This document shows, one piece after another, positions 1-15,521 of a stretch of DNA of 64,000 nucleotides. How positions within the stretch are numbered: position 1 is the first letter of the stretch; each line of letters opens with the position of its first letter. Position numbers and translations under genes: made by a program. Where the stretch lies: the NCBI GenBank assembly GCA_963666275.2, contig CAXXOA010000003.1, positions 192,001-256,000 on the forward strand, in the 5' to 3' direction. This DNA comes from Oceanispirochaeta sp. Lineage in GTDB: Bacteria > Spirochaetota > Spirochaetia > DSM-2461. The notes below the pieces were generated by a model. That model did no database searches and was not told the DNA's origin. It saw nothing but the letters and a program-made list of their open reading frames with translations.

Positions 1-732
1 CCTACAGACATCGGCACACCCCAAGGCGGGCCCTTATCACCTCTGCTTTCCAATATCCTCCTTGATCGGTTGGATATGGAACTGGAGAGAAGAAATGTGA
101 GGTTCGCACGGTATGCAGATGACACTATCCTTTTAACGAAGAGATTGTGTGATGCTAGGAAGATCCTACAGGAAGTTTCAATATTTCTGGTAAGGAAATT
201 GAAATTGCTAGTGAATCAGGAGAAAACGAAAGTTGCAAAGATAAGGGAGTGCAGTTTCCTGGGATTCACATTCAAGGGTAAGAAGATTCGCTGGACAGAG
301 TCGTCCTTTGAGGATTTTCGGTATCATCTGAAATATCTGACAAGGCGTTCCTGGGGTGTTTCCATGGAATACAGAATCGGGAAACTCAATGAGTATATCC
401 GGGGCTGGATGAACTACTATGGGATCTCCCAATATTACAGCCCTATACAGAATCTTGATGACTGGCTCCGTAGGAGGATTCGCATGTGCTACTGGAAACA
501 GTGGCGATATCCCAGAACGAAAGTCAGGAAACTGATGGAACTGGGAATTCCGAAAGATTTTGCCATTATCACCGGTGCCAGTAGTAAATCCTATTGGCAT
601 CTCTCCAAGTCTTACGCTACCAATGCAGCTATGTCCAATAAATGGCTGGAAGAGCAGGGATTGGTCAATATCAAATATCTATGGTGTAAAGCCCAGGGAT
701 ATATCGTAACCGTCAAAACTACAGGCCCTTGA
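1..732 (+). CDS. ltrA: Group II intron reverse transcriptase/maturase, 5'-truncated by the window edge; last 8 aa come from the IS66 end
   Basis: Frame is open from base 1: GTPQGGPLSPLLSNI, RYADD, FLGF and maturase motif GWMNYY. No C-terminal endonuclease domain. The native stop (TGA 3036-3038) lies just beyond the IS. Confidence 0.95.
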   Translation, partial: PTDIGTPQGGPLSPLLSNILLDRLDMELERRNVRFARYADDTILLTKRLCDARKILQEVSIFLVRKLKLLVNQEKTKVAKIRECSFLGFTFKGKKIRWTESSFEDFRYHLKYLTRRSWGVSMEYRIGKLNEYIRGWMNYYGISQYYSPIQNLDDWLRRRIRMCYWKQWRYPRTKVRKLMELGIPKDFAIITGASSKSYWHLSKSYATNAAMSNKWLEEQGLVNIKYLWCKAQGYIVTVKTTGP

Positions 733-2260
733 AAGCCCTTTTCTGAATAGCTTCCCGGTCACAGTTCCAGGGAAGCAGTTTTTCTTTGTCAAAATCATCT
801 TCCATGACTGCGACCTGATCGAATATCCACCATAGATATCCATAGGGATTCAGATCATTCACTTTCGCCGTCTCAATCAAAGAGTAAAAGAGACTACTGG
901 ATTTAGCACCCCTCGGAGATCCGGAGAACAGCCAGTTTTTCCGACCAACCACAAAAGGTTTAATCGCCCGTTCAGCGGCATTGTTATCCGGCGTCAGGTA
1001 GGGAGACTCAATAAAACGGACGATTTTCTCCCACTGGCCCAAGATATAGGCTATCGCTTTTCCCGTCGCCGTAGACGGCCTAACCTTTTCAGCCTTGTCA
1101 TCCAGCCAGGATTTGAGGTCATCCAGAAGCGGCTGAACCAGCTCTTTTCTCCTGTTCAAGAACTTCATATCATCCAAATGCTCATCCCGGAGATTACTTT
1201 CAATCCGGTAAATATCTCTGATTTTCTTTACAGCAATTTGAGCGCTTCCGGCTTTCTTTGAAGCCTTCGCGGCATCTACAAATTTCCGACGGGCATGTGC
1301 CAGACAACCGACATGAATGATATCTTCGTTGCCGTCCAGTGCCGTTTCATAAGCCTGATAGCCGTCAGTCTGGAGATATCCCGAATATCCCTCCAAAAAC
1401 GCCTTGGCATGCTGAGAACTTCTTGTTTCATGGTAGTCGTAGATCACAAGGGGTGAGTCCGGAGGCCCTCCCCGGGCAAGCCACATGTAGGATTTTGAGG
1501 TGTCCGGACGGTTTTCTTCTCCCAGAACCTGCACTGTGGTTTCATCCATCTGGATAACAGGGCCTTCTTTGATCTTCTTCCTAAACATATCCATAAGGAA
1601 TTGGAGCCTTTCTGCTGATTTATTTGTCCAATTGGACATGTCTTGGCGGCTGATATGAGCGCCGATACGCTCAAAGCGCTTCTCCTGCCTGTAAAACGGC
1701 AGATGATCACAGAACTTATTCACCAAGATAAAGGCTAAAAGCCCCGAAGTAACGATACTACCGGGAAGGATGGAAGGAGCCGCCGGGGCTACTCTGAAAA
1801 CCGGTTTGTCTTCATCACCGGAACCCTCACAGTTCCGGCAGGCATACTTGTAACGGATATGACGCTCCACGTATATCTGCTCGGGGATATGCTGAAGCCT
1901 TTCACTGACAATCTCATCAATCTTATCCAGTTGATGCCCGCAGCCGCAGATCTTTTCCTCTTCGGGAATGTCATGGATGATGTCCTCCCGGGGGATGTTG
2001 CTGTCCAAAGGCTTTCGTCCTGCCTTTGTTCGGCTATGTGCGGGAACTGTTATCTGATCATCTGCTGCGAATTCTTCCTCAGAAGGAGCCTCTTCTTCAA
2101 ACAGTTCCTTCTGGTTAGGATCGATTTTCTCGCTGGAACGTCCAAACTTGCGATGAAGAGCCAGGCGGAGTTCTTCTGTTAATTGCTCAATCTGACCAGA
2201 CATACTCTGGATGAGTTCAAGTGCTTTCTCTGGTGATTTTTGTATCTCCGCCAAGTCCAT
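719..2260 (-). CDS. tnpC: IS66 DDE transposase TnpC
   Basis: Coiled-coil with FGRSSEK, zinc finger, KFCDHLPFYRQ, MDET, LQTDGY, CLAHARRKF, DNNAAERAIK motifs. Confidence 0.96.
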   Translation of the reverse strand: MDLAEIQKSPEKALELIQSMSGQIEQLTEELRLALHRKFGRSSEKIDPNQKELFEEEAPSEEEFAADDQITVPAHSRTKAGRKPLDSNIPREDIIHDIPEEEKICGCGHQLDKIDEIVSERLQHIPEQIYVERHIRYKYACRNCEGSGDEDKPVFRVAPAAPSILPGSIVTSGLLAFILVNKFCDHLPFYRQEKRFERIGAHISRQDMSNWTNKSAERLQFLMDMFRKKIKEGPVIQMDETTVQVLGEENRPDTSKSYMWLARGGPPDSPLVIYDYHETRSSQHAKAFLEGYSGYLQTDGYQAYETALDGNEDIIHVGCLAHARRKFVDAAKASKKAGSAQIAVKKIRDIYRIESNLRDEHLDDMKFLNRRKELVQPLLDDLKSWLDDKAEKVRPSTATGKAIAYILGQWEKIVRFIESPYLTPDNNAAERAIKPFVVGRKNWLFSGSPRGAKSSSLFYSLIETAKVNDLNPYGYLWWIFDQVAVMEDDFDKEKLLPWNCDREAIQKRAFKGL

Positions 2261-2301
2261 GAGAAAATTCTAACATGTTTGAATTCCATTGGGAAGATGG
2301 T

Positions 2302-2649
2302 TTAGACAATCTCTTCATAACTGAGAGTTTGATGAGTATGCCAGAAGTCAATACCTTCCAGGAGCATTTTCAACTGTTCCTGGGATATCTGCCTGGCTTG
2401 CTCTTCTGAATCCGGCCAGGGGTATTTTCCTTTTTCCAGGCGCTTCTGCCAGAGACAGAATCCGTTGCGATCCCAGTAAATGCACTTTATCAGCTTGCGG
2501 TCCCGGCTGCAAAAGAGGAAAAGGCAACCGGAACCAGGGTTAAGTTCCATTTCCTCCTGGGTGATAATGGATAAACCATTGACCTGTTTCCGCATATCGG
2601 TGATACCAGGTCTGACGTAGATTTGAATGCTGGTAAAATCCGGAATCAT
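2302..2649 (-). CDS. tnpB: IS66 accessory protein TnpB
   Basis: TDMRK..NGL, FLFCSR, YWDRNGFCLWQKRLEKG motifs. Confidence 0.95.
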   Translation of the reverse strand: MIPDFTSIQIYVRPGITDMRKQVNGLSIITQEEMELNPGSGCLFLFCSRDRKLIKCIYWDRNGFCLWQKRLEKGKYPWPDSEEQARQISQEQLKMLLEGIDFWHTHQTLSYEEIV

Positions 2650-2954
2650 TTTAGGATCTCTTTTAAATCGGCGACAAGACGAATCAGCGAATGAGAATCG
2701 TAATCTGATGGAATATTGATCTTATGCCCGGAGGGGTATTCGATTGAAAATGGGCTTCCTGTAGACGCCTTCAAAACTACTGGAATCCTCACAAGCCCTT
2801 TTTCCTTCTCTACTGCTGATTCCTTGCGGATTTTCATTCTCCAATAGTCGAAGGTTGAAACGGGGATGCTATTCTTCAGGCAGAACTCTGTTCGGTTTAA
2901 ACTGCTCTTCTCCCATTCATTGATTTTTCGTTTCCAAATGTCTTTTTTTTCCAT
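2646..2954 (-). CDS. tnpA: IS66 accessory protein TnpA (HTH)
   Basis: W..S.L...EFC....I..STFDYWR pattern. ATG at 2954 preceded by AAGGAG. Confidence 0.88.
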   Translation of the reverse strand: MEKKDIWKRKINEWEKSSLNRTEFCLKNSIPVSTFDYWRMKIRKESAVEKEKGLVRIPVVLKASTGSPFSIEYPSGHKINIPSDYDSHSLIRLVADLKEILK

Positions 2955-3069
2955 GCAGTAAATCTCCTTGTAGAAATTGTGCATGGAATTCAGATTACAT
3001 CGTAGGGCATAAGAAATTGACGGTTACGATATATCTGATCAAATCAGGATTTCGTTTGCTCCATGGAGT

Positions 3070-3140
3070 GAACCGCCCCGTGCGGACCCGCATGCGGGGT
3101 GGTGTGGGGGCTGGAGGTTAAAAGCCTCCGGCTACCCGAT
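3070..3140 (+). ncRNA. Group II intron catalytic domains V and VI
   Basis: Short DV stem-loop with CGC triad typical of IIC introns. DVI stem GGGGGCTGGAGG/CCTCCGGCT-A-CCC, terminal AT. Confidence 0.92.
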
Positions 3141-3218
3141 TTATGTATTTCTTTTTGGGAATCTCATTATTTGCATGTCTCACCCCTCATTTTTGGGTAA
3201 GATTTTGGAGTTATTTCA

Positions 3219-3830
3219 TCAGACTCCTTTGCTACTTAAGATAAATTCACAAATTTCATTATCATTCAGCATCTTATCTCGGTCGATTAATTTTATAGTT
3301 TCTGTTTTTGTAAAATAACTCTGTTTGATACTTTTCTGATTTTCGAAAACTTTAAGATACCCATTGTTAATGTCATCCCAATTCAATGTTTTTTCATAAA
3401 AAGAATTATCTTTACTAGCAAAAGGCCTACTTCTTGTCATTATGCAAATTGTCACATCATACTTGTCTTGCAGTTTTGAATAAAGCCTATGATGTATATC
3501 ATATATAAGCGATAACTCGAATTCATCTAAACCTGAAAGTTCCCCATAAATTAATGCGGAGATATAGCTACGATCCATTACTATATTAGTATCTGAATAA
3601 AGCATTGTTTCGTATAGATCAACGGTATGAGATATTGTGTGAAGAAGTTGCCGTTCAAATGGTGATATTGAAGTTTTTCCCTTTACAATACCACGTAGAA
3701 AACCTAGAGTATTACTTGCGCTTGGTTGCTGAAGAATAGAGGCATTTATCATTGTTGATAGTTGTTTAGAAATTGTAGATTTACCAAGATTATCGGCAGA
3801 TTCTAAAATCACTAGTTTATGTTTATCCAC
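3219..3830 (-). CDS. P-loop nucleotide kinase, thymidylate-kinase-like
   Basis: LVILESADNLGKST P-loop, MDRSYISALIYG (TMPK DR motif). Likely GTG start at 3830 overlapping the upstream stop; the ORF-track start at 3962 overlaps the upstream gene by 140 bp. Confidence 0.8.
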   Translation of the reverse strand: MDKHKLVILESADNLGKSTISKQLSTMINASILQQPSASNTLGFLRGIVKGKTSISPFERQLLHTISHTVDLYETMLYSDTNIVMDRSYISALIYGELSGLDEFELSLIYDIHHRLYSKLQDKYDVTICIMTRSRPFASKDNSFYEKTLNWDDINNGYLKVFENQKSIKQSYFTKTETIKLIDRDKMLNDNEICEFILSSKGV

Positions 3831-5847
3831 CGTTCTTGCCCTCCACTCCTTTAATACCTTGTAGAATGAGTAAAATAATCTCATCAATAAACTTACTATT
3901 GAAAAGTATTCGGTTTTCCTCTTCTGAAAGTCCATTGTTTTCTGAAAGACCTGCGATTCCAATATTACTTATTTCTTGTACAATTGATTCATAGCTAATA
4001 TCTTTCTCTTCTGAATCTAACTCAAATAAGTCACTAATTTCTTTGTAGCCAGCGTTATGATGTAATTGCCACTCTTTTGTTAATTCTTCAGGAATAGTAC
4101 CACTTACTAATAATTCACATACCTTGGATGTAACACCTCCAAAACCTCCAAGCAAATACAATGGTTTTTTTTCTCTTAAAGAAATAATTATTTCCTCGAA
4201 AACACCAGGATACTTACCCTTGTAACCAGAAAAGCGACCTCCTGCAGAAATTCGATAATTGCACTGCCCAATCATTTCTTTACGCATCTTAGTTAAACAT
4301 AGACTCCATGCAAAGCAGTTTATCGCACCGACAGGACGTAGAAATATTTCTTTATCATGGTTTTTCTGGACTTTTTCTGATGGCTCAACCTTAATAATTT
4401 TTACCACCTTATTATTTTTTGCATTCCAATCCAAAGTAGGTTCATCAATATTTGTGTAAATAGGCCATGCTAAATAATTTTGAATTTTTGGCGTGGATGC
4501 CTGTAATCGATCTTGCACAACTTTTGCCTCTTCGCAAAGAAATTCTGAAAATCCTCCTGGACGAAGATCACCACCATAAACAACAGTAGCATCTCGAAAA
4601 AGTAAATGGCGTGCAATAGTTTGAGATAGAGAAATCAAATGTTTATTAGTTTGCCCAATATTTAGCAATTCCTCAGGTTCAGGATCTGATATAGATATTC
4701 CTATCGAAATTCCAGCAAAGGCTTTTAACTCCAATGTAAGGGGAGTACAAGCAATAATTCCTAATGGTTCAATACATTTATGCTCTATTCCATATACTGG
4801 AGGATCGGGATAAATGATTTTTGAGAACTTAGAATATATTGAGTCTCCGGAATTTGAAAGTAAATTGGTTATGTCAGACAATTCTGGAGGTCGGACCAAT
4901 AACATCGTTGATCCGTCATCATGTATACTTAATAAATCTTTGTAATAATTGATTTTTAGTGTTTCGAGTAGTGCGGTCTCAAGAATAGTATGTATATCAA
5001 GCTCAGAGATAGGTAAGCTAGAGTCTAAATGAACAGATGGTACATTGACAGAATGTGGAAATGCTCGATCTTCGTTTACTTTTAAATAGTTCACAACGAT
5101 TATTGGGAGACTATTCTCTTTGGCTATTAATATCTCTTTTTGACACCAATATCTCATAGAATAATTATCAGATTGAATTGAAATCAATGTGGAATCTTTT
5201 ACGGAATTTTCAATTTCATCTTCAAAATCATGAGAAATATGGATATCATATGCATCGTAAAAACGATGCATTAACGTATTATCAATAAATGATTTTAGTG
5301 ATTTAGCCGTTTCAACGGCCCAATCATCGTATTTCGTATGACTTAAAAATAACTTTATAGCACTATCATTACCTGGAATGTTTCCACCGTTAGAAAAAGC
5401 AAATCGATAGATTTCGTGAGTTGCTGAAATGAAAAACTGTTGGGTAATATATTGTTTGTCAAAGTCATAAAGCCTTATAAAATTTAACTTTTCATATTTC
5501 TTATTCAACCCAAATCCGAATTCTGAGTTAATAGCAATTGGAATAACTTGTTGGTCATCAACGGAAAGAAATGTGTCATAATAAGCTCTCCAATCAACAT
5601 TCCCAGTCACATACTTGTTGGAGAAACAAAAAATTATAGTTTTTTTTGCTTTTGAATCAATTCTTTTGGGTATAGCATTGTCATTCGAAGTTCGAAAGAA
5701 TACAGGAAGATTCATACTTCTAGAAAATGGTCTTGAAATATCTTTTTGAAATCTGTCAAAACAATACTCTACTAAAGGCTTTACAATAGCTTCATCAGCT
5801 GAATGCCAAACAAAATAGATTGCAAGTGGCTGCCTAAAAATTTGCAT
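3823..5847 (-). CDS. TIR + SLOG domain protein (N-terminal degenerate TIR-like region, central TIR, C-terminal SLOG)
   Basis: Central TIR: LFLSHTKYD...YWCQKEI with Glu. SLOG: IGISIS, VVYGGDLRPGGF, LTKMRKEM, SAGG...YKGKYPGVFEE, PLYLLGGFGG. Confidence 0.82.
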   Translation of the reverse strand: MQIFRQPLAIYFVWHSADEAIVKPLVEYCFDRFQKDISRPFSRSMNLPVFFRTSNDNAIPKRIDSKAKKTIIFCFSNKYVTGNVDWRAYYDTFLSVDDQQVIPIAINSEFGFGLNKKYEKLNFIRLYDFDKQYITQQFFISATHEIYRFAFSNGGNIPGNDSAIKLFLSHTKYDDWAVETAKSLKSFIDNTLMHRFYDAYDIHISHDFEDEIENSVKDSTLISIQSDNYSMRYWCQKEILIAKENSLPIIVVNYLKVNEDRAFPHSVNVPSVHLDSSLPISELDIHTILETALLETLKINYYKDLLSIHDDGSTMLLVRPPELSDITNLLSNSGDSIYSKFSKIIYPDPPVYGIEHKCIEPLGIIACTPLTLELKAFAGISIGISISDPEPEELLNIGQTNKHLISLSQTIARHLLFRDATVVYGGDLRPGGFSEFLCEEAKVVQDRLQASTPKIQNYLAWPIYTNIDEPTLDWNAKNNKVVKIIKVEPSEKVQKNHDKEIFLRPVGAINCFAWSLCLTKMRKEMIGQCNYRISAGGRFSGYKGKYPGVFEEIIISLREKKPLYLLGGFGGVTSKVCELLVSGTIPEELTKEWQLHHNAGYKEISDLFELDSEEKDISYESIVQEISNIGIAGLSENNGLSEEENRILFNSKFIDEIILLILQGIKGVEGKNGG

Positions 5848-6426
5848 TTAATAACTCCACTTTGTTTGAGACTCTGATCGATTATTAGCAAATGACGGAT
5901 AACTGTTATCTGGAATATCAATTTTTCGTCTATTAAAAGCATCATCTATCCAATTTTGCACTATATATGGATTAATATCCCAATTATATATTTTTGCGTA
6001 GCCGCACTTTATATTATCATATAAGCGAGGTGGAATAGTGAAGGGGTTATATTGACCACCATTCTCACAACTTTTGTTTTCCCATGAATACTCACAATTA
6101 TAGGATGGTAAGAGTATTCCTATTAACCCTGTACGACTATTATACTGGGTTTTCCTGATACTAGAGGAAATTTCCCAGTCTACATGTTTTCTTTTCCACG
6201 TATCTTTACCAATCAAGACAATAGCAACTGTAGCGTCTTTTATAAATTTATCGCGTATTTGCTGACGTATAGTGTCGGTTTGCAATAAAGGGTTAATATC
6301 TCCTTCTTCAACTGATTTTGATATAAATCCATCAAATGAATTCGTGAATTTTTGAATAAATTGCTTTTTATAAGATTCATCATTTTTATGATGATAACTT
6401 ATGAATACTTTGTGTTTTTTTATCAT
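5848..6426 (-). CDS. ThsB-like TIR protein (DUF1863 family)
   Basis: HKVFISYHH.ND, IRDKFIKDATVAIVLIG..TWKRKHVDWEI, PPRL.DN. ATG at 6426 or GTG at 6435. Confidence 0.88.
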   Translation of the reverse strand: MIKKHKVFISYHHKNDESYKKQFIQKFTNSFDGFISKSVEEGDINPLLQTDTIRQQIRDKFIKDATVAIVLIGKDTWKRKHVDWEISSSIRKTQYNSRTGLIGILLPSYNCEYSWENKSCENGGQYNPFTIPPRLYDNIKCGYAKIYNWDINPYIVQNWIDDAFNRRKIDIPDNSYPSFANNRSESQTKWSY

Positions 6427-6435
6427 TACATCCAC

Positions 6436-7062
6436 CTATGATTGACCATCATATCTAATAAATTTCTCTTCTTGAAACATGGAAGGGAATCCAATTAGCC
6501 CATTATTATAGTTCTGTTGAATATATTCTAAAATTTGCAATGCGATCTTTTCATCCACATATCTGTGTCCTGGACCTCTTTTGCAAAGTTTTGTTGAAAT
6601 TTTTAATGGTATTTCAAACGCATCTTTCCCAAAGTAATAGAAATGACTTGAGATTAGTACCATGTCAGTAGTTGAAGTGTCTCGTTTCAAATTATGCTGA
6701 TTTATTTCGCCATTTTCGAGACTATGATGAGAATTATCTTGATGCCAATCACCATCATTTTTTTGGTGATATATATTGTCTCCATACATTTTCTTCAGAC
6801 TGCCATTCATCACCGGTTTTTTGTATTGAAAATCTGGATTTTTGTAGTATTCATTAAATGTCATTTTGGCCGTTACTTGCATAGTATAAATCAACCTAGG
6901 CGATTGTTGGTGTATGATGGATGATGTGCCAAATATCCAGTCGCCTATTTTTGCACTCTTTCTAATACTCGGCTTACAAGTTGCTAAAGTGCAATGTTTT
7001 CCAAATGGATTGGGTGCAAAACCAAAATCTCGAGGTATAACATATGAATAATACATAGCCAT
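6436..7062 (-). CDS. Nmad2 (nucleotide-modification-associated domain 2) protein
   Basis: YSYVIPRDFGFAPNPFG..CTLATCKP.IRK.AKIGDWIFG, GDNIY and LIS..FYYFG signatures. TAATG stop/start overlap at 7062. Confidence 0.85.
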   Translation of the reverse strand: MAMYYSYVIPRDFGFAPNPFGKHCTLATCKPSIRKSAKIGDWIFGTSSIIHQQSPRLIYTMQVTAKMTFNEYYKNPDFQYKKPVMNGSLKKMYGDNIYHQKNDGDWHQDNSHHSLENGEINQHNLKRDTSTTDMVLISSHFYYFGKDAFEIPLKISTKLCKRGPGHRYVDEKIALQILEYIQQNYNNGLIGFPSMFQEEKFIRYDGQS

Positions 7063-7535
7063 TAACAATTGCTCCTGCCAATCCCATATCTACTTTGCCA
7101 AGGGCCATTCCCTTCAGAATTATCAAAGTCATTGCAAATTCCGTTTATTGCATCAATAATTTTTCCTGAATTCCACCCTACTAAAGCATCTCCAAATTTC
7201 TGGAAAGATTCTGGGACATCGGAATCCTTTGCTCCTTGCATAAAAACTCCTACAATAGGCTTTCCTTGTTTTGCTGCCTGCTCAATTTCCCAATTAACCC
7301 ATTCTCTAGTATGCGTTTGCGGACCGATCAAGACAACTGTTGTTCCCGCCCAACTTATTCCATCTCTCAATAATCCTTTAATGTATTCAGGGTTTTTTGC
7401 ATCATTAGGCTTTGTGCTATCAATTGAACTATTCCTCAGAGTATAACCTTTATCGCCGAGCATCTTCTTTAAAGCTTGAACGCTTTCATCATCCTTTCCA
7501 TAATGGCTGATAAACACATTTTTATTCTTCATCAA
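7062..7535 (-). CDS. ThsB-like TIR protein (DUF1863 family)
   Basis: NVFISH..KD, LR.GISWAGTTVVLIG.QTHTREWVNWEI..A...GKPIVGV. Confidence 0.88.
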   Translation of the reverse strand: MMKNKNVFISHYGKDDESVQALKKMLGDKGYTLRNSSIDSTKPNDAKNPEYIKGLLRDGISWAGTTVVLIGPQTHTREWVNWEIEQAAKQGKPIVGVFMQGAKDSDVPESFQKFGDALVGWNSGKIIDAINGICNDFDNSEGNGPWQSRYGIGRSNC

Positions 7536-8152
7536 TATCCTCCTTTCAAGAATAAAGAATTTAATGATGGATTGTGAAACTTTATACCATTTTGCTTATG
7601 CGTTTTTGAATACAATGCAAGAGCCCAATCATGAAGGAAATCATTTTCAGATTCAAAAAATTCTTCAGATTCTCGCATCCTAATAGATTTTTCCCATTCT
7701 TCAAGTTTTTTTAATTGTTGATCAAAAGATGTTAGCGACTCAAATTTACTTTTGTACACATATGATTCATTTGAGCATGAAACCACTTTGCTTAAAGATA
7801 CTATCTTTTCTCTAAATTCTTCATAATAATGAAGATTATTTGTGATATGGTAATAAGAGCCAATTTCATAACCCAAAATTCCAGCAAAATATTCTAGCAT
7901 GAACATGTTATTAAACATATTAATACCAGTTGCACCCCAAAGAAAATCATTAGATCTCATATGAACATAAAGATTTAGCTTTCCTTGAACATCTCGAATA
8001 AACTGGATAGATCTAGTGCATGGGAAATCTTTTGTCTCCTTGATTATACCATTATTAAAACAATCTTTGACTGGATCACCTATATCAATTATTGCCTGTC
8101 TTGTGAACGCATCACGTTTAAAAGACTCAATTACATAACTAAACTGTAAGCG

Positions 8153-9724
8153 TCAAATAAACACAGGCCCTTTATCAGCCGTAATGTTATCTTTTAAATT
8201 CCATGGTAATAATTCTTCCCATTCTTGTTCATTATTGATGAACGGAGCTTTAGAGAAAACATAATGCAGATAATCAAAGGGATTCAAATTATTTTGTTTT
8301 GCAGTCTCAATCAGAGAATACATCCCGCAGGAACTGTCTGCCCCTTTGGGATTCCCGGAAAATAGCCAGTTTTTCCTCCCCAGAACAAAAGGACGAATAG
8401 CATTTTCACTGCCATTATTATCCGGAGTCAGATAAGGACTTTCCAGATATCGGATCAAATAATCCCATTGATTCAATGCATAATGAACAGCCTTACCTAA
8501 AGCACTTTCAGGTAAAACATTTTCAGCCCTTTTATCCAACCATTGTTTAAATTTTTCAAGAATGGGTTCGGCCTTGCTTTTCCGTTGTTCCTGGAACTCT
8601 TCAGGAGATAATTTCTTACTCCTTAGATCATTTTCCAAGGCATAGAGCTTCTTGATATGCTTGATTCCTTCCAGAGCACTTTTAGATTTTTTACTGGCTT
8701 TATCAGCCTCAAAGAACTTCCTTCTGGCATGTGCAAAGCAGCCTACCAGATGTATATCGGGATTGCCTTCTACCGCGGTTTTGTATCCTTGATATCCATC
8801 GGTTTGCAGATACCCTTTAAAACTAGTGAGAAAATTCTTTGCATATTCCGATGCCCGTGTTGGATGGTACTCATAATAAACAGCTTGTTGTCCCGGAGGA
8901 CCGCCTCTGGACAGCCACATATAGGATTTCTGTTTGTTATCCCGACCTGGTTCATTCAGAACCTGTACGGTTGTTTCATCCATTTGGATCACCGGACCGG
9001 ATTTTATGTGGGTTTTCAGCAGTTCAAAGAGAGGGAGAAGAGCTTCATAAGCCTTTTTCTGCCAATTACTCATATTCTGACGGCTGATTCGGGCTCCCAT
9101 ACGCTCAAACCGCTTTTCCTGTCGGTAAAAAGGAAGATGGTCCACGTACTTGTTTACCATCAGAAATGCCAACAGACCGGGAGTGACAATCCCTTTGGGG
9201 ATGATGGAAGGCTCCGGAGGGGCAATCTTTACAGCAGGAACATCTTCATCGGCGGTTCCTTCGCAATTACCACAGGCATATTTTAACCGGACAATCCGTT
9301 CTACCCAGATACGGGGAGGGATCACATGCAGTTTCTCAGAGATTTCTTCTCCGATTTTTTTCAGTTCTGTTCCGCAGGCACAGTTTTTTTCATCTTCAGG
9401 AATATCAATAATCCGTTCTTTGCGGGGAAGGTTCTCATCCAGAGGCTTTCTGCCTGTTTTCTTACGCTTGTAAGAATCTATTTGCTGTTCTTCCGAACAG
9501 TCTTCCTCAGGAGTCTGTGGTTCATCAGAATCAAATAATTCAATCTGATCAGGGATATTTTCTGCTCTTCGACCGAATTGACGATGCAATGCCAAGGCCA
9601 ACTTCTCTTCAAGAAGCTGATATTTCTTTTCCCAGTTCTGATTCTGGGCTTCTGATTCAGCAAGTTGCTTTTTCAGAGATAAAAATTCTTTTTGTGCTTC
9701 CAACGGAAGAGAGGAAATATCCAT
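8153..9724 (-). CDS. tnpC: IS66 transposase TnpC
   Basis: KYVDHLPFYRQ, MDET, LQTDGY, CFAHARRKF, DNNGSENAIR. Confidence 0.96.
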   Translation of the reverse strand: MDISSLPLEAQKEFLSLKKQLAESEAQNQNWEKKYQLLEEKLALALHRQFGRRAENIPDQIELFDSDEPQTPEEDCSEEQQIDSYKRKKTGRKPLDENLPRKERIIDIPEDEKNCACGTELKKIGEEISEKLHVIPPRIWVERIVRLKYACGNCEGTADEDVPAVKIAPPEPSIIPKGIVTPGLLAFLMVNKYVDHLPFYRQEKRFERMGARISRQNMSNWQKKAYEALLPLFELLKTHIKSGPVIQMDETTVQVLNEPGRDNKQKSYMWLSRGGPPGQQAVYYEYHPTRASEYAKNFLTSFKGYLQTDGYQGYKTAVEGNPDIHLVGCFAHARRKFFEADKASKKSKSALEGIKHIKKLYALENDLRSKKLSPEEFQEQRKSKAEPILEKFKQWLDKRAENVLPESALGKAVHYALNQWDYLIRYLESPYLTPDNNGSENAIRPFVLGRKNWLFSGNPKGADSSCGMYSLIETAKQNNLNPFDYLHYVFSKAPFINNEQEWEELLPWNLKDNITADKGPVFI

Positions 9725-9765
9725 AAGAGAATTTTAACAAAGACTGGAATTTGAGTAAATTCCTT

Positions 9766-10113
9766 TCAGGCAATTTCTGAATATTTCAATGTTTCGTGGG
9801 CTTTCCAGAAGTCTATACCCTTCAGAAGCATAGAGAGTTCTTCAAAGCTGATGGCTTTAGCAGCTTCTTCCGTATCTGGCCAGGGGAAGCGGTGCTTCTC
9901 CAGACGCTTCTGCCAGAGGCAGAAGCCTGTCTGATCCCAGTAAAGGGCTTTCAGAATCCGTCTCTGTTTATTACAGAACATAAAAAGAGAGCCGCAAAAA
10001 GGATCAAGAGACATTTCATCCTGAACTTCTACCGCCAAACCATTAATAGCTTTCCGCATATCGGTAACACCGGGTCGGATAAATATCTTGATTTGAGAGA
10101 AATCCTTAATCAT
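9766..10113 (-). CDS. tnpB: IS66 accessory protein TnpB
   Basis: TDMRKAINGL, YWDQTGFCLWQKRLEK. Confidence 0.95.
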   Translation of the reverse strand: MIKDFSQIKIFIRPGVTDMRKAINGLAVEVQDEMSLDPFCGSLFMFCNKQRRILKALYWDQTGFCLWQKRLEKHRFPWPDTEEAAKAISFEELSMLLKGIDFWKAHETLKYSEIA

Positions 10114-10408
10114 TGCACTGTACCAGGGTCTGAAGCAGTTTTTTCAATGTGATTGTATCAAAGTTCCGATCCAGTTTTATCCGGTAGGCATTCCATTGTA
10201 ACTCAATGGATGAGCCTTTGACTGTTTCCTTGGGCAATTTAACAGGAACTTCAACCAAGGATGGAGTTTTACGGTCATACCGCTTTTGCCATCCGTGGAA
10301 AGTCGTTGTTTTCAGTTTTTTATCCCGGCAGAACTGACTTACAGATTTTCCGGACTGTTTCCACTCTGCCAAAAGAGCGTAGCGCTGATCCATTGTGTAT
10401 TGTTTCAT
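10106..10408 (-). CDS. tnpA: IS66 accessory protein TnpA
   Basis: WKQSGKSVSQFCR...TFHGW pattern, first gene of the element. Confidence 0.88.
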   Translation of the reverse strand: MKQYTMDQRYALLAEWKQSGKSVSQFCRDKKLKTTTFHGWQKRYDRKTPSLVEVPVKLPKETVKGSSIELQWNAYRIKLDRNFDTITLKKLLQTLVQCND

Positions 10409-10880
10409 AGTAATTCTCCTGATGGAGATTGTACCGGGATGACTTGGAGATTTTTAGATGCGGTTTATTTGACGCTTACACTAAACTGATCGATTATATC
10501 CTGAGCACTATTATTTTGAGTATAACCAATCTGATAATCTGTATTTTCACCATTAAATTTTCGAAAACGTGGACCATATCCTGCTCTCATCCAGATACCA
10601 TCATCTGAAAACTGTTTTAAATTATTGCAATAGTAAGAGCTCATTTCAATGTCATTTCTACCAGCAGCTAGCCATAGAGACTCTGCAAATGGTAGATATT
10701 TATTCCATTCTCTTTCGGGTACAGTAATGATTCTTGCACAAGGATTTGATATTTGTACAATGATAGGTTCAGGTAATTCGTAACAAACTTTCCCACGAGT
10801 CGCTCGCTTTACACCTTCTTTCAGAAGAACTGCTGACATTTTTACAAGAAACTCATTTAAACTATCGTATTTAAATTTTG

Positions 10881-11861
10881 TTACATCCATTCGTTCACCT
10901 GGGGATAGTTAAGATTCCATTTTGGTGGAAAAAATAAATCTATCTTTGTTTGATTTATTTTAAATTTCTGTTTAATTCTTTTATTACCTACAGATAATTC
11001 TGGTAATTTTACTCGAAGGAATTTATCTGTTTCACAAAAACAATTTTGAAGATCAATGAGAGTAGGTTCTCTTCCAAATAAATTATTAAAATAATAGCCA
11101 TACTTTTCTCTATATTTTTCAATATTATCAGCTGTGTAACGAATTGCATCCTCGTAACTATAACCATCAAGATCAGAAAAGCACTTCTTTATACCACGGA
11201 TTGCACCAATTCCAGCTTTTACAAATGAATTCTCATCAAAATCAAATACATCAGAATAATTGAGGTCAATTGCGTATTGGTATGCTAAAAATGGACCTAT
11301 AAATGAACACTTAATAAGTATTTCGTACAGCTCTTTTAATGTTTTACACTTTAGCATCTTGTTAATTACTGGTGTATCAATAATTTCTGTTTTAAGCATT
11401 TGAAGCCATTTCTCATGCTTATAAAAATACCCTTTAGTATAGTTTCGGTGTGTACCTGTCATCAAATATGCTGCACTGAATATTGGACGATTCTTAATCC
11501 TTTCACTCAGGATATTCGATATTTCAGTAATATTGAAATTCTGAGTTGTGATAAATCCTAAATTATGCTCAATAAATTCCCAAGTATCGATTCTGTTGAA
11601 AATTTTAAAAAGAAGAATACGTAGAATTGTATCTTGAGCAGAAAAGTTACCCTTAGGAGAATAAATTACTTGGCGAACAAGATATTGACTAACCCGATCG
11701 CAAACACGATATACATTTGTAAATTTATACTCTGATAAAATGGGATCTGTAGTCAGATTGTTAAATTGATTGCAGGTTTCATTGTATCTATGCCAGAATA
11801 TATTCATTCGTTCTTGCATGAAATAAAAATAGTATTGAAATGCTTCATCACGAATCTTCAT
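10881..11861 (-). CDS. aGPT-Pplase1 / 5-hmdU DNA kinase helical-domain family protein (HhH-glycosylase-like base hypermodification protein)
   Basis: F..ER..IF..R, DPIL.EYKFTNVYR..DRVSQYL, FKIFNRIDTW, IGPFLAYQYAIDLNYS, AG.GA.RG, LIDLQNCFCETDK motifs. ATG at 11861 with AGGA upstream. Confidence 0.85.
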   Translation of the reverse strand: MKIRDEAFQYYFYFMQERMNIFWHRYNETCNQFNNLTTDPILSEYKFTNVYRVCDRVSQYLVRQVIYSPKGNFSAQDTILRILLFKIFNRIDTWEFIEHNLGFITTQNFNITEISNILSERIKNRPIFSAAYLMTGTHRNYTKGYFYKHEKWLQMLKTEIIDTPVINKMLKCKTLKELYEILIKCSFIGPFLAYQYAIDLNYSDVFDFDENSFVKAGIGAIRGIKKCFSDLDGYSYEDAIRYTADNIEKYREKYGYYFNNLFGREPTLIDLQNCFCETDKFLRVKLPELSVGNKRIKQKFKINQTKIDLFFPPKWNLNYPQVNEWM

Positions 11862-11936
11862 TGTCTTTCCTAAAATACTTTTGTATTTGTAACCTGATGT
11901 TTTAACTTTTCTCAATCTTTACGATATCAAATATAT

Positions 11937-12110
11937 ACATAACTATCTGATCACCTGCGGCCCGGCCTGGCCGAAGGACAGGTATTGGCGTTCTTCTTGC
12001 CAACATGGTAAAACATCTTTACCATATTGAGAAGCGATTATTTACTATTGAGTGGGAATATCAGCAAGAAGTATGACAATAGGGGTGACTGGTGCATCAG
12101 CATGTTATGT
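11937..12110 (-). other. Integron attC recombination site (174 bp)
   Basis: Minus strand: R'' ACATAAC, 5 nt spacer, L'' GATGCACC (one extra base) ... L' GGTGATC, 5 nt spacer, R' GTTATGT. Interior forms a long imperfect hairpin (TATTGGCGTTCTTCTTGC with GCAAGAAGTATGACAATA). Confidence 0.78.
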
Positions 12111-12196
12111 GAGCTTCCTTGGAGCAATTTTGCCCTAGATTCATATTTAATATTAATATTTACATTGTTTTCTATTGATCAACAGAGGACTGATTT

Positions 12197-12487
12197 ATGA
12201 AGAATAAGATAAAGATCTTCTTTTTAAAAATATTTCTTTACATGATCGGCATTTATGATTTCATGATGCTTCTATATGCGCTAGCAGTTATATTTCTAGG
12301 TGGGAATGGTATTACAGGGCTAAACAACATGCTCATAAAAACAGGGGGCAGTTATCGAGGTGTTGACCATTCTGTTGGTGCTGTAGTCATTGTTACTTTA
12401 ATAGTTCAAATTATGCTTATCAAAATAATTATTAGTAAAATAAAGGAATTAGAAGTTGATGTTAAAAAGGATATTTCTGATAACTAG
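12197..12487 (+). CDS. Small two-TM hypothetical protein (cassette)
   Basis: 96 aa, two hydrophobic helices, GAGGA RBS, AT-rich. Confidence 0.65.
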   Translation: MKNKIKIFFLKIFLYMIGIYDFMMLLYALAVIFLGGNGITGLNNMLIKTGGSYRGVDHSVGAVVIVTLIVQIMLIKIIISKIKELEVDVKKDISDN

Positions 12488-12557
12488 GTTTCTGTCTATT
12501 CATGAATTCCATGATAAGCTTATGTTAACTTAATTTTGTCGGCTAAGGAGTTATTCA

Positions 12558-12836
12558 ATGGTAACTGAATATGACATATCTAACATTCTACCTAGACTCA
12601 TAGGATCACTTAAAGAGATTTATGATCAAGAAATTCAGAATGGAAACACTGTAGTTGAGATTGCTGGAGGATGGCCTATGAAAAGGGTAAATATCTGGTT
12701 TGCAAAACCAATATCCTCTAAATATAAAAAACAGTTTCCTGATCTTATATATAAGTATCTAGGAGATCCAAAAGGAGATCTGGAATACTATATGGATAAA
12801 TTGAACGAAGCATTCATCGCTGCCAAGTTCTCATAA
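12558..12836 (+). CDS. Small hypothetical protein (cassette)
   Basis: 92 aa, strong AAGGAG RBS. No family recognised. Confidence 0.7.
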   Translation: MVTEYDISNILPRLIGSLKEIYDQEIQNGNTVVEIAGGWPMKRVNIWFAKPISSKYKKQFPDLIYKYLGDPKGDLEYYMDKLNEAFIAAKFS

Positions 12837-12879
12837 TGTACGTTCTGTCAATTATTGGTTTATATTAAAGGAAAAAATA

Positions 12880-13098
12880 ATGACACTTTCGGAAAAATTA
12901 CAAATTGTATTCTTTTCACTATTGCTATTAAATTTTTTTGTTGTTTTTATTAAGCATTGGAAAAAATCAATAAATAATATTTATGACATCAGAAATCAGC
13001 AAATTAGGCCTATAAAAAGCAATATTAAAATGCCGTCATTGAAAATTACTGTAATCCTTTTAATCATAAATTTTATATTACTAGTTATCAGATTTTAA
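12880..13098 (+). CDS. Small two-TM hypothetical protein (cassette)
   Basis: 72 aa, hydrophobic ends, AAGGA RBS. Confidence 0.55.
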   Translation: MTLSEKLQIVFFSLLLLNFFVVFIKHWKKSINNIYDIRNQQIRPIKSNIKMPSLKITVILLIINFILLVIRF

Positions 13099-13215
13099 TT
13101 TAGGGGAAATACTTAACATTGTCCCCATAATCGGTTACCGACAATCACCTATTCTGTCACTTTAGAATTTTTAAATTAACAAATTTATACTGAAAACTAC
13201 AAAAATTTTGAGTCC

Positions 13216-13272
13216 ACATAACATTACTTATTATCCTGTTCAGTATAATTATCCCGTCTATGCAGTGATAAC
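13216..13272 (-). other. Putative attI-like end of the cassette array (continues at 15603-15680 beyond IS66 A2)
   Basis: Minus-strand core GTTATGTG at 13222-13215 is complementary to R'' of the attC at 12104-12111. No attC hairpin is evident on its right; instead repeated TTAT...ATAA motifs. Confidence 0.55.
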
Positions 13273-13285
13273 GTAACCGTCAAAA

Positions 13286-14827
13286 CTACAGGCCCTTGAA
13301 AGCCCTTTTCTGAATAGCTTCCCGGTCACAGTTCCAGGGAAGCAGTTTTTCTTTGTCAAAATCATCTTCCATGACTGCGACCTGATCGAATATCCACCAT
13401 AGATATCCATAGGGATTCAGATCATTCACTTTCGCCGTCTCAATCAAAGAGTAAAAGAGACTACTGGATTTAGCACCCCTCGGAGATCCGGAGAACAGCC
13501 AGTTTTTCCGACCAACCACAAAAGGTTTAATCGCCCGTTCAGCGGCATTGTTATCCGGCGTCAGGTAGGGAGACTCAATAAAACGGACGATTTTCTCCCA
13601 CTGGCCCAAGATATAGGCTATCGCTTTTCCCGTCGCCGTAGACGGCCTAACCTTTTCAGCCTTGTCATCCAGCCAGGATTTGAGGTCATCCAGAAGCGGC
13701 TGAACCAGCTCTTTTCTCCTGTTCAAGAACTTCATATCATCCAAATGCTCATCCCGGAGATTACTTTCAATCCGGTAAATATCTCTGATTTTCTTTACAG
13801 CAATTTGAGCGCTTCCGGCTTTCTTTGAAGCCTTCGCGGCATCTACAAATTTCCGACGGGCATGTGCCAGACAACCGACATGAATGATATCTTCGTTGCC
13901 GTCCAGTGCCGTTTCATAAGCCTGATAGCCGTCAGTCTGGAGATATCCCGAATATCCCTCCAAAAACGCCTTGGCATGCTGAGAACTTCTTGTTTCATGG
14001 TAGTCGTAGATCACAAGGGGTGAGTCCGGAGGCCCTCCCCGGGCAAGCCACATGTAGGATTTTGAGGTGTCCGGACGGTTTTCTTCTCCCAGAACCTGCA
14101 CTGTGGTTTCATCCATCTGGATAACAGGGCCTTCTTTGATCTTCTTCCTAAACATATCCATAAGGAATTGGAGCCTTTCTGCTGATTTATTTGTCCAATT
14201 GGACATGTCTTGGCGGCTGATATGAGCGCCGATACGCTCAAAGCGCTTCTCCTGCCTGTAAAACGGCAGATGATCACAGAACTTATTCACCAAGATAAAG
14301 GCTAAAAGCCCCGAAGTAACGATACTACCGGGAAGGATGGAAGGAGCCGCCGGGGCTACTCTGAAAACCGGTTTGTCTTCATCACCGGAACCCTCACAGT
14401 TCCGGCAGGCATACTTGTAACGGATATGACGCTCCACGTATATCTGCTCGGGGATATGCTGAAGCCTTTCACTGACAATCTCATCAATCTTATCCAGTTG
14501 ATGCCCGCAGCCGCAGATCTTTTCCTCTTCGGGAATGTCATGGATGATGTCCTCCCGGGGGATGTTGCTGTCCAAAGGCTTTCGTCCTGCCTTTGTTCGG
14601 CTATGTGCGGGAACTGTTATCTGATCATCTGCTGCGAATTCTTCCTCAGAAGGAGCCTCTTCTTCAAACAGTTCCTTCTGGTTAGGATCGATTTTCTCGC
14701 TGGAACGTCCAAACTTGCGATGAAGAGCCAGGCGGAGTTCTTCTGTTAATTGCTCAATCTGACCAGACATACTCTGGATGAGTTCAAGTGCTTTCTCTGG
14801 TGATTTTTGTATCTCCGCCAAGTCCAT
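13286..14827 (-). CDS. tnpC: IS66 transposase TnpC
   Basis: Protein identical to 719-2260. Confidence 0.96.
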   Translation of the reverse strand: MDLAEIQKSPEKALELIQSMSGQIEQLTEELRLALHRKFGRSSEKIDPNQKELFEEEAPSEEEFAADDQITVPAHSRTKAGRKPLDSNIPREDIIHDIPEEEKICGCGHQLDKIDEIVSERLQHIPEQIYVERHIRYKYACRNCEGSGDEDKPVFRVAPAAPSILPGSIVTSGLLAFILVNKFCDHLPFYRQEKRFERIGAHISRQDMSNWTNKSAERLQFLMDMFRKKIKEGPVIQMDETTVQVLGEENRPDTSKSYMWLARGGPPDSPLVIYDYHETRSSQHAKAFLEGYSGYLQTDGYQAYETALDGNEDIIHVGCLAHARRKFVDAAKASKKAGSAQIAVKKIRDIYRIESNLRDEHLDDMKFLNRRKELVQPLLDDLKSWLDDKAEKVRPSTATGKAIAYILGQWEKIVRFIESPYLTPDNNAAERAIKPFVVGRKNWLFSGSPRGAKSSSLFYSLIETAKVNDLNPYGYLWWIFDQVAVMEDDFDKEKLLPWNCDREAIQKRAFKGL

Positions 14828-14868
14828 GAGAAAATTCTAACATGTTTGAATTCCATTGGGAAGATGGT

Positions 14869-15216
14869 TTAGACAATCTCTTCATAACTGAGAGTTTGAT
14901 GAGTATGCCAGAAGTCAATACCTTCCAGGAGCATTTTCAACTGTTCCTGGGATATCTGCCTGGCTTGCTCTTCTGAATCCGGCCAGGGGTATTTTCCTTT
15001 TTCCAGGCGCTTCTGCCAGAGACAGAATCCGTTGCGATCCCAGTAAATGCACTTTATCAGCTTGCGGTCCCGGCTGCAAAAGAGGAAAAGGCAACCGGAA
15101 CCAGGGTTAAGTTCCATTTCCTCCTGGGTGATAATGGATAAACCATTGACCTGTTTCCGCATATCGGTGATACCAGGTCTGACGTAGATTTGAATGCTGG
15201 TAAAATCCGGAATCAT
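14869..15216 (-). CDS. tnpB: IS66 TnpB
   Basis: Identical to 2302-2649. Confidence 0.95.
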   Translation of the reverse strand: MIPDFTSIQIYVRPGITDMRKQVNGLSIITQEEMELNPGSGCLFLFCSRDRKLIKCIYWDRNGFCLWQKRLEKGKYPWPDSEEQARQISQEQLKMLLEGIDFWHTHQTLSYEEIV

Positions 15217-15521
15217 TTTAGGATCTCTTTTAAATCGGCGACAAGACGAATCAGCGAATGAGAATCGTAATCTGATGGAATATTGATCTTATGCCCGGAG
15301 GGGTATTCGATTGAAAATGGGCTTCCTGTAGACGCCTTCAAAACTACTGGAATCCTCACAAGCCCTTTTTCCTTCTCTACTGCTGATTCCTTGCGGATTT
15401 TCATTCTCCAATAGTCGAAGGTTGAAACGGGGATGCTATTCTTCAGGCAGAACTCTGTTCGGTTTAAACTGCTCTTCTCCCATTCATTGATTTTTCGTTT
15501 CCAAATGTCTTTTTTTTCCAT
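15213..15521 (-). CDS. tnpA: IS66 TnpA
   Basis: Identical to 2646-2954. Confidence 0.88.
   Translation of the reverse strand: MEKKDIWKRKINEWEKSSLNRTEFCLKNSIPVSTFDYWRMKIRKESAVEKEKGLVRIPVVLKASTGSPFSIEYPSGHKINIPSDYDSHSLIRLVADLKEILK

Follow-up and report, generated by a model that had tools for sequence, protein, structure and literature searches.

Near the left end of a 64,000-nucleotide stretch of an Oceanispirochaeta sp. genome (contig CAXXOA010000003.1, positions 192,001 to 256,000; hereafter the window, in whose numbering all coordinates are given) lies a gene cluster in which relatives of phage thymidine-modification enzymes stand among TIR- and SLOG-domain proteins. The window belongs to the third of the three contigs (381,805 bases) of this 5.27 Mb genome. 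The cluster consists of seven co-directional reading frames on the minus strand (3219-11915), neighbours abutting or overlapping by a few bases, with a GC content of 0.31-0.36 as against 0.44-0.49 in the flanks; it is foreign, AT-rich DNA acquired horizontally. In the order of transcription the genes encode a helical protein of the HMUDK_hel family (10881-11915; PF18723, E 3.6e-83); an enzyme of the thymidylate synthase (TS) family, present in two pieces; TIR_A, a ThsB-type TIR protein of 157 residues (7062-7535; PF08937, E 2.7e-23; PADLOC ThsB model PDLC00418, E 4.5e-54); Nmad2, 210 residues (6436-7068; PF18753, E 9.9e-71); TIR_B, a second ThsB-type TIR protein of 195 residues (5848-6435; PF08937, E 2.5e-19; PADLOC PDC-M50B, E 3e-12); TIR-SLOG, 674 residues (3823-5847; PF18163 SLOG cluster 2, E 3.3e-68; TIR_2, E 2.6e-08); and a thymidylate-kinase-like P-loop protein (3219-3962; PF02223, E 3e-05; TIGR00041, E 2.9e-07; PADLOC PDC-M51B, E 7.4e-09). 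An initial annotation, made from the letters alone, had described seven overlapping or abutting AT-rich minus-strand genes in this order and with these domains; the layout of the open reading frames (ORFs) and the GC content confirmed the former, and Pfam, PADLOC and NCBIfam searches the latter, with a weak match for the kinase. PADLOC, which has no models for the HMUDK_hel, TS-like or Nmad2 proteins, returned for the window's proteins only ThsB models, PDC-M50B (the TIRs), PDC-M51B (the kinase) and a weak PDC-S66, and no protein of the cluster was named above cut-off in the NCBIfam search.

The TS-like gene is interrupted. An IS66-family insertion sequence (IS) of 2334 bases (8146-10479, minus strand; NF033517 transpos_IS66, E 9.8e-131), with three transposition genes (8153-9724, 9766-10113 and 10106-10408), splits it into an N-terminal piece of 137 residues (10480-10890, minus strand), which aligns with residues 1 to ~135 of intact orthologues, and a C-terminal piece whose translation has 203 residues (7532-8145, minus strand). 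Copies of the 8-base target duplication ACTAAACT stand on either side of the element, at 8138-8145 and 10480-10487. Placed end to end, the two pieces match intact orthologues of 327-336 residues and overlap solely in two residues, those that the duplication encodes, so the insertion is the only visible lesion of the gene. The genome carries 11 full-length copies of this element at 92-100% identity, and since four of them are 100% identical the insertion is taken to be recent; the IS66-family elements of this genome appear to be active. With the TS-like gene split, this genome probably lacks a working full pathway, and the broken copy is therefore a poor starting point for experiments.

The enzyme itself was analysed through a family profile built from the intact orthologues, the two pieces from the window being left unjoined. 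Among solved structures the profile best matched the CMP hydroxymethylase MilA (5b6d; E 1.2e-34, 123 bits), as against at most 67 bits for classical TS enzymes. The catalytic Cys and Glu are retained in the alignment with MilA, and the C-terminal piece keeps the catalytic Cys (FPCT), MRSND, the Asn of GINMF and the His/Tyr of LHYY. The MilA-type residues Lys133, Ala176 and Asp186 are absent, their positions being held by Arg, Ser and Asn. In the available part of a study of these enzymes, Arg and Ser are ascribed to those using deoxyribonucleotides and Asn to those using uracil (PMC5175136). This deoxyuridylate-type signature therefore predicts deoxyuridine monophosphate (dUMP) as the substrate; the product may be either dTMP or hydroxymethyl-dUMP, between which the sequence does not discriminate.

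The HMUDK_hel frame has 344 residues from a TTG codon and 326 from the likely start, an ATG at 11861. PF18723 is, we believe, the family formerly named aGPT-Pplase1, HMUDK_hel being its present Pfam name. An AlphaFold2 model (mean predicted local distance difference test (pLDDT) score 88) aligned by VIA-align best with a queuine salvage enzyme (7ugk; Z 10.0, root-mean-square deviation (rmsd) 6.3, 242 residues aligned) and next with gp46 of phage PaMx11 (8z2m; Z 9.9, rmsd 4.2, 224 aligned), followed by 20 rows of helix-hairpin-helix DNA glycosylases at Z 5-8. For helical proteins a Z below ~13 may be unspecific, though this list is uniform. Foldseek gave nothing at E 0.001 or better for the HMUDK_hel and Nmad2 models, so that both folds are read from VIA-align together with the consistency of the hit lists, and a profile search of solved structures found no relative of the HMUDK_hel family (best E 0.38). 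On these model comparisons the protein most probably has a DNA-glycosylase-like helix-hairpin-helix fold, and it is without a P-loop. The label aGPT-Pplase1-type helical protein, used in the initial annotation, is acceptable and fits better than '5-hydroxymethyldeoxyuridine (5-hmdU) DNA kinase', a label that we rejected as misleading for a gene whose product has a glycosylase-like fold and no P-loop. Cys294-Glu295 are invariant across 20 family members. PaMx11 gp46 is a 5-phosphomethyldeoxyuridine glycinyltransferase, for which the available part of its description proposes Cys247 as the nucleophile (PMC11472151); Cys294 may be its counterpart, as matched by chain position only. Relatives of the protein occur in 470 phage records at ~25% identity, chiefly in ViI-like and M6-like phages.

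TIR_A and Nmad2 recur as a unit and are predicted to form a complex. In an alignment of 15 orthologues the catalytic-type Glu83 of TIR_A is invariant, as is its last residue, Cys157 (15/15). Against solved structures the TIR_A profile matched ThsB-type TIRs best (8wcf, E 3.8e-15, then 9b7d and 6lhy), and the hydroxymethyl-CMP N-glycosidase MilB was absent at E up to 1. The Nmad2 model (mean pLDDT 86.6) drew YTH, EVE, ASCH and McrB-N domains in the top 21 of 50 VIA-align rows, at Z of merely 4.8-7.8, and weak Foldseek matches to the PUA-like group (best 2p5d, E 5.9e-3). These middling matches suggest a PUA-like (EVE/YTH/ASCH) fold. PUA-like folds such as YTH, EVE, ASCH and McrB-N are known for binding modified bases. 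Complex prediction scored the TIR_A-Nmad2 pair at 0.86, the best of three controls reaching 0.34; in calibration, 116 of 157 solved complexes and 2 of 215 mismatched pairs reached the 0.86 mark, counts that hold only roughly here, our own alignments having been used for the pair. At least 86% of contacts agreed between runs, with a pLDDT of at least 88 for the partner. In the predicted interface the TIR_A tail (residues 145-157) lies against many invariant residues of Nmad2, including the Cys31-Lys32 region. TIR_A and Nmad2 are thus predicted to bind each other.

Downstream of this pair, TIR_B has relatives in five of the loci surveyed below (L013, L014, L016, L017 and L059; surveyed loci carry L numbers). 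TIR-SLOG begins with ~160 N-terminal residues, followed by a TIR domain with an invariant Glu238 and an SLOG cluster 2 domain at residues 378-648; its relatives are either one fused gene or a pair of genes for a TIR protein (~395 residues) and an SLOG protein (~320 residues). The catalytic-type glutamate is retained in all three TIR domains of the cluster. Among solved structures, the sole and marginal profile match of SLOG cluster 2 was the SLOG domain of BcThsA (E 0.097). The kinase matches Pfam Thymidylate_kin weakly (24.2 bits, cut-off 27) and a thymidylate kinase in the PDB (9wd2, E 0.0041), and a Walker A motif (NLGKST) and a DRS motif can be read in its translation. Translation probably begins at the ATG at 3884, since an ORF taken from the TTG would share 140 bases with the TIR-SLOG gene.

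Five of the seven functions in the cluster are those of a known, validated anti-phage system, DS-4 (working id NTTI), found in E. coli with DefensePredictor (DeWeirdt et al., Science 2026; PMC13092281, from the available parts of which the statements on DS-4 here are taken). DS-4 comprises a thymidylate synthase (361 residues), a deoxynucleoside monophosphate (dNMP) kinase (185), an HMUDK_hel protein (340), a TIR protein (163) and Nmad2 (220). Its TIR protein is ThsB-like by DefenseFinder, and was aligned by the authors' HHpred search to MilB (4JEM) with probability 0.99. According to its strain list the system was cloned into E. coli K-12, and in Table S7 it has a single phenotype row, for phage lambda, with a -log10 efficiency of plating of 0.93 (~8.6-fold) and smaller plaques; no mechanism is given in these parts of the paper, which cites Burroughs et al. 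2015 as an earlier computational prediction (PMC13092281). Beyond DefensePredictor, we found no experimental paper on this gene set. Lambda is, to our knowledge, a phage without hmdU, and since DS-4 restricts it, phage hmdU-type nucleotides are likely not required. The initial annotation knew of no experimentally characterised system of this composition; the validation of DS-4 makes this out of date for five of the seven functions, and it stands for the form that contains TIR-SLOG, TIR_B and TIR-SLOG being additions to the described system. The window resembles DS-4 in these five functions, in the adjacent and overlapping TIR and Nmad2 genes, and in four of the five proteins, which share 29-53% identity with homologues in a DS-4-like E. 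coli cluster. It differs in gene order, in its broken TS-like gene, in its kinase, which is thymidylate-kinase-like whereas that of DS-4 is a T4 gp1-like dNMP kinase, and in the second ThsB TIR and TIR-SLOG cluster 2 protein that its operon also holds.

The comparison was made with an E. coli cluster (L028) and not with the exact DS-4 clone of the paper. A DNA search for Nmad2 matched 16 of 5426 complete E. coli genomes, of which L028 (positions 1-14111 of a chromosome record) is one locus. It holds a five-gene DS-4-like cluster, an IS30 fragment, an Mrr-type nuclease gene and, on the opposite strand, an SLOG cluster 2 protein (272 residues, E 3.9e-76), a 397-residue TIR protein, two ThsB TIRs and a hypothetical gene. 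By BLASTP the window's proteins match those of L028 at 31% identity for HMUDK_hel (E 1.2e-32), 29-30% for the TS pieces, 44% for TIR_A and 53% for Nmad2; TIR_B is 35-38% identical to the two ThsB TIRs, and TIR-SLOG matches both the 397-residue TIR protein (25%) and the 272-residue SLOG protein (31%). Only the kinase of the window is thus without a partner in L028, and the seven functions keep company in E. coli as well, divided between two operons. A type IV secretion system coupling protein, MobC, ArdC and a broken integrase were also seen at L028, whose clusters look as if they sit on an integrative mobilisable element.

How regularly these genes occur together was surveyed from both ends. 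In species-representative genomes, 27 loci with HMUDK_hel were mapped by phmmer and Pfam, one of them a 1.6-kb contig that is not assessable; 20 of the 27 have TIR_A and Nmad2 adjacent to HMUDK_hel (below, core loci). The fourth enzyme of the core loci varies: it is TS-like in six, a radical SAM/SPASM protein in eight and MazG or MazG_C in five, one of the latter also having a dCTP-deaminase-like gene, while the relevant gap of L017 was not scanned for it. Thirteen core loci also have an SLOG gene (cluster 2 in nine, cluster 3 in four); those of cluster 2 are fused to the TIR or separate from it, one being broken (L003) and one cut by a contig end (L001). A P-loop motif search of the small neighbouring ORFs of the 27 loci found no conserved kinase. 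One core locus has a small Nmad1 (DUF1599) gene between its TS-like and TIR_A genes (L012, 2240-2527). In five of the six other loci (L015, L020, L021, L024 and L026) HMUDK_hel stands beside MazG_C without a TIR; an M78 (IrrE-like) peptidase gene is near in L015, L020, L021 and L026, a helix-turn-helix regulator adjacent in L020, L021 and L024, and a thymidylate kinase present in L020. This TIR-less variant looks like a regulated cassette of its own.

From the other end, an eight-sequence SLOG cluster 2 alignment was run against metagenomes, giving 80 loci whose features were called with alignment-derived hidden Markov models; 35 of them, with at least 3 kb upstream and at least 1.5 kb downstream, were taken as assessable. 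Near-duplicate contigs (e.g. L036-L038, L040/L041 and L076/L078/L085) were counted separately, and the counts are thus of contigs and not of independent events. A separate ThsB-like TIR gene was found in 62/80 loci (34/35 assessable), Nmad2 in 30/80 (21/35), HMUDK_hel in 16/80 (12/35) and a TS-like gene in 13/80 (10/35). Among the assessable loci, 13 had TIR genes only, without Nmad2, nine had TIR_A and Nmad2 without HMUDK_hel, and one had none of these features. TIR_A-Nmad2 is the piece common to the DS-4 and TIR-SLOG contexts. One metagenome locus (L059) repeats the window's order of HMUDK_hel, TS-like, TIR_A, Nmad2, TIR_B and TIR-SLOG, with an intact TS-like gene. Loci in which the TIR/SLOG module stands beside a DS-4 core come from Bacteroidota, Desulfobacterota and E. 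coli. A search of other genomes of the host phylum gave no SLOG cluster 2 (0/400), a figure that serves as a background rate only. In one locus with TIRs and TIR-SLOG only (L040, 11528-12280), the last gene of the cluster has a CFI-box-CTERM domain (NF041770, E 4.9e-24).

The association of the two modules is real, and is optional in both directions. The co-occurrence of modification and TIR/SLOG genes in other genomes, on which the initial annotation had made its proposal depend, is thus found, across phyla, in the 20 of 27 HMUDK_hel loci with TIR_A and Nmad2 and the 13 of those 20 with an SLOG gene. Its argument that interleaved genes are not simply two neighbouring systems was too strong: the modules also occur separately, and in E. 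coli as two operons.

The TIR/SLOG part resembles Thoeris in that ThsB-family TIRs with a catalytic-type glutamate adjoin an SLOG-domain protein, and by analogy its logic would be that of a signal maker and a signal-activated effector. Type I Thoeris joins ThsB to a ThsA effector with a SIR2 (or TM/Macro) domain and a ThsA-type SLOG domain. In the window, by contrast, the effector domain is a TIR and not SIR2, and Pfam matched neither SIR2 nor Macro in the proteins of the operon. The SLOG domain is of Pfam cluster 2, its match to that of BcThsA being marginal, and nucleotide-modification-type genes lie within the operon, which also sets it apart. Type III Thoeris combines several TIRs with an SLOG effector (van den Berg et al. 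2024, as given in the available part of 10.64898/2025.12.03.692087). The NCBIfam model for its ThcB4 scored 21-29 bits against a cut-off of 220 (25.7 for the window's TIR-SLOG), and the other NCBIfam type III Thoeris models had no match among the window's proteins at E up to 0.01. As far as sequence models can test it, the module is Thoeris-like and outside the described types. The main text of the same preprint on TIR systems describes no TIR-SLOG or Nmad2 form, though its ~30 predicted effectors may include one (10.64898/2025.12.03.692087).

With the thymidine hypermodification pathways of phages ViI, M6 and PaMx11 (Lee et al. 2018 and 2021; PMC8989533) the cluster shares the HMUDK_hel family, a gp46-like fold, a dUMP-type TS-family enzyme and a nucleotide kinase. 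It differs from them in having neither a pyridoxal phosphate enzyme nor another tailoring enzyme, in its bacterial defence context with TIR, Nmad2 and SLOG, and in that its HMUDK_hel protein is just ~25% identical to the phage proteins; at Pfam E up to 0.01, neither a P-loop 5-hmdU DNA kinase nor a clade-2 aGPT-Pplase (amino-acid:DNA transferase) was matched in the operon. The MilA/MilB pair of mildiomycin biosynthesis offers a third likeness, with a TS-like family that best matches MilA followed by a small Rossmann-like protein (TIR_A), whose DS-4 counterpart others have aligned to MilB; it differs in that the TS-like enzyme has Arg/Ser/Asn where MilA has Lys/Ala/Asp, and in that TIR_A is ThsB-type by profile.

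Slightly more probably than otherwise, in our view, the locus is an acquired anti-phage composite of two separable modules, now interrupted by an IS, in which sensing by TIR_A-Nmad2 leads to an SLOG-gated effector acting on NAD+. The observations under this reading are the computed domain identities, folds, residue signatures and gene association and the predicted TIR_A-Nmad2 interface. In the first, DS-4-type module, the TS-family enzyme would add a one-carbon group, most likely hydroxymethyl, at C5 of dUMP, and the thymidylate-kinase-like kinase would phosphorylate the product; the DNA-glycosylase-fold HMUDK_hel protein, of a phage thymidine-hypermodification family, would be the third part, and TIR_A, tightly paired with the modified-base-reader-like fold of Nmad2, the fourth. 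The second, Thoeris-like module would consist of TIR_B and the TIR fused to the SLOG cluster 2 ligand-binding domain. TIR_A-Nmad2 would be the core for sensing and signal making: the Nmad2 pocket would recognise a modified pyrimidine, either as a nucleotide in the pool or within DNA. Once infection upset deoxynucleotide metabolism or replication, that compound would be made or processed by three proteins of the module, the TS-like enzyme, the kinase and the protein with the glycosylase fold. The activated ThsB TIRs might then turn NAD+ into a small signal, the SLOG domain would bind it, and the attached TIR would consume NAD+, so that the infected cell is stopped. We infer every one of these chemical steps, the order of events and the cross-talk between the modules. 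The radical SAM, MazG, dCTP-deaminase-like and TS-like families all act on free nucleotides, and it is on such nucleotides that the variable part of the core seems to work, to judge by the exchange of the TS-like gene for radical SAM or MazG. TIR-Nmad2 recurring as a unit, its predicted complex and its link to TIR-SLOG together suggest a TIR that makes the signal, with Nmad2 as its sensor subunit and SLOG cluster 2 as a receiver.

Several points weigh against this reading. The modules are separable and each occurs alone; seven of the 20 core loci have no visible SLOG gene, and L028 of E. coli has the modules as two operons of opposite orientation. Nor is the kinase conserved: no window-type kinase turned up in the 27 genome loci and just one in the 80 metagenome loci (L089, in the same context), and that of the window had no BLASTP match to the P-loop, DS-4-like kinase of L028. 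The fold matches are middling (Z up to ~10 for HMUDK_hel, below 8 for Nmad2) and may reflect common arrangements. The lambda phenotype of DS-4 is modest and comes from the sole row found in the available tables (PMC13092281), and our literature search found no experiment on a TIR-SLOG cluster 2 form or on any seven-gene form. The MilB label that HHpred gave to the DS-4 TIR in that paper means that TIR_A may cleave a nucleotide rather than NAD+, and any ligand of the SLOG domain is putative.

A closely related reading, which we hold to be unlikely, makes the thymidine-modification-type enzymes the input or fuel of the TIR cascade, with no marking of DNA: a C5-modified deoxyuridine, which the TS-like enzyme, the kinase and the glycosylase-fold protein would make from dUMP, would be read by TIR_A-bound Nmad2 or even built into the TIR product, and SLOG cluster 2 would sense the signal and fire the TIR effector. 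Such a Thoeris-like pathway would be gated by a modified pyrimidine or would signal through one, and the invariant cysteine at the end of TIR_A, lodged in the conserved pocket of Nmad2, would belong to the switch. Somewhat less improbable is that a DS-4-type system and a multi-TIR/TIR-SLOG Thoeris-like system are independent and merely travel together, having become one operon by recombination in some lineages, with no cross-talk. Defence genes commonly cluster; TIR-SLOG occurs with ThsB TIRs only in the 13 of 35 assessable loci noted above, the modules of L028 are on opposite strands with the IS30 fragment and the Mrr-type nuclease gene between them, and the five-gene DS-4 scored as defensive alone (PMC13092281, available parts). 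Yet the association spans phyla and gene orders despite the SLOG cluster 2 background of 0/400, and in nine of the 35 assessable loci TIR_A and Nmad2 lie directly beside TIR-SLOG without the other DS-4 genes. The pair thus behaves as a sensor module that can be plugged into an SLOG effector.

That the nucleotide enzymes might instead poison the phage's DNA is rather improbable. Here, on infection, replicating DNA would receive 5-hydroxymethyl-dU, or a C5-modified dU akin to it, through the TS-like enzyme and the kinase, and the glycosylase-fold protein, guided by Nmad2, would attack or modify the base and wreck the DNA of the phage, the TIRs serving as back-up or regulators. The dUMP-type signature of the TS-like enzyme, the presence of a nucleotide kinase, the glycosylase-like fold and invariant Cys-Glu pair of HMUDK_hel, and the fold that Nmad2 shares with readers of modified DNA bases (e.g. 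the McrB N-terminal domain and THYN1) would all suit it, as would the catalytic cysteine nucleophile of gp46, which acts on flipped-out DNA bases (available parts of PMC11472151 and PMC8989533). However, Cys294 is equated with Cys247 of gp46 by relative chain position and not by residue-level alignment, and clade-1 phage paralogues are described in part of the latter paper as dispensable for group transfer in vitro (PMC8989533); the replacement of the TS-like gene by radical SAM or MazG, and the role of a TIR paired with Nmad2, are left unexplained. A route of the MilA/MilB type seems to us very improbable. In it a pyrimidine nucleotide would be hydroxymethylated by the TS-like enzyme and would then lose its base through N-glycosidic cleavage by TIR_A or the glycosylase-fold protein, the freed modified base being an antimetabolite or, joined to ADP-ribose, the signal. 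MilA is indeed the best solved relative of the TS-like enzyme, the top fold match of HMUDK_hel (7ugk, Z 10.0) is a nucleotide-level glycosylase, and the DS-4 TIR was likened to MilB 4JEM with probability 0.99 by its authors' HHpred (PMC13092281, available parts), but TIR_A is nearest to ThsB-type TIRs (E 3.8e-15), with MilB absent at E up to 1, and the TS-like enzyme lacks the ribo- and cytosine-specific residues of MilA. It is extremely doubtful that the host hypermodifies its own thymidines as a label and that the TIR arm guards the process, the first of the two options in the initial annotation: although relatives of HMUDK_hel are found in phages known for thymidine hypermodification (PMC8989533, available part), the P-loop 5-hmdU DNA kinase and clade-2 aGPT-Pplase of the known pathways were not matched in the operon, the locus is rare, mobile, dispensable and, in the window, broken, and the cloned DS-4 worked in E. 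coli K-12 without a companion nuclease (PMC13092281, available parts).

DS-4 is among the few validated defence systems with phage-style thymidine-modification enzymes. The recurrence of TIR-Nmad2 as a unit, its predicted complex and its repeated wiring to TIR-SLOG provide handles on the mechanism of DS-4. If the favoured reading is true, TIR signalling would extend to triggers or messengers derived from modified pyrimidines, and the swapping of the nucleotide enzyme among TS-like, radical SAM and MazG would be explained.

The surroundings of the cluster show further insertions. A second IS66-family element, with three identical copies in the genome, flanks it on both sides: copy A (706-3027, minus strand) has its own 8-base duplication GATATATC at 698-705 and 3028-3035, and copy B (13273-15594, minus strand), identical to copy A, has the duplication GTGATAAC at 13265-13272 and 15595-15602. 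With its own duplication at each copy, the two are separate insertions, and no composite transposon landed here. To the right of the cluster lie ordinary transport and metabolic genes. Between the start of the operon and copy B are three small AT-rich ORFs on the plus strand (12197-13098; 96, 92 and 72 residues), for which Pfam gave no significant family, the 72-residue ORF having a sub-threshold match to DUF2434 (E 0.0034, 16.9 bits, cut-off 25); the first is membrane-spanning by its look. At the left edge of the window (1-732) an open-ended reading frame for a group II intron reverse transcriptase/maturase (RVT_1 and GIIM) runs into copy A, which seems to have landed in this frame or at its 3′ end.

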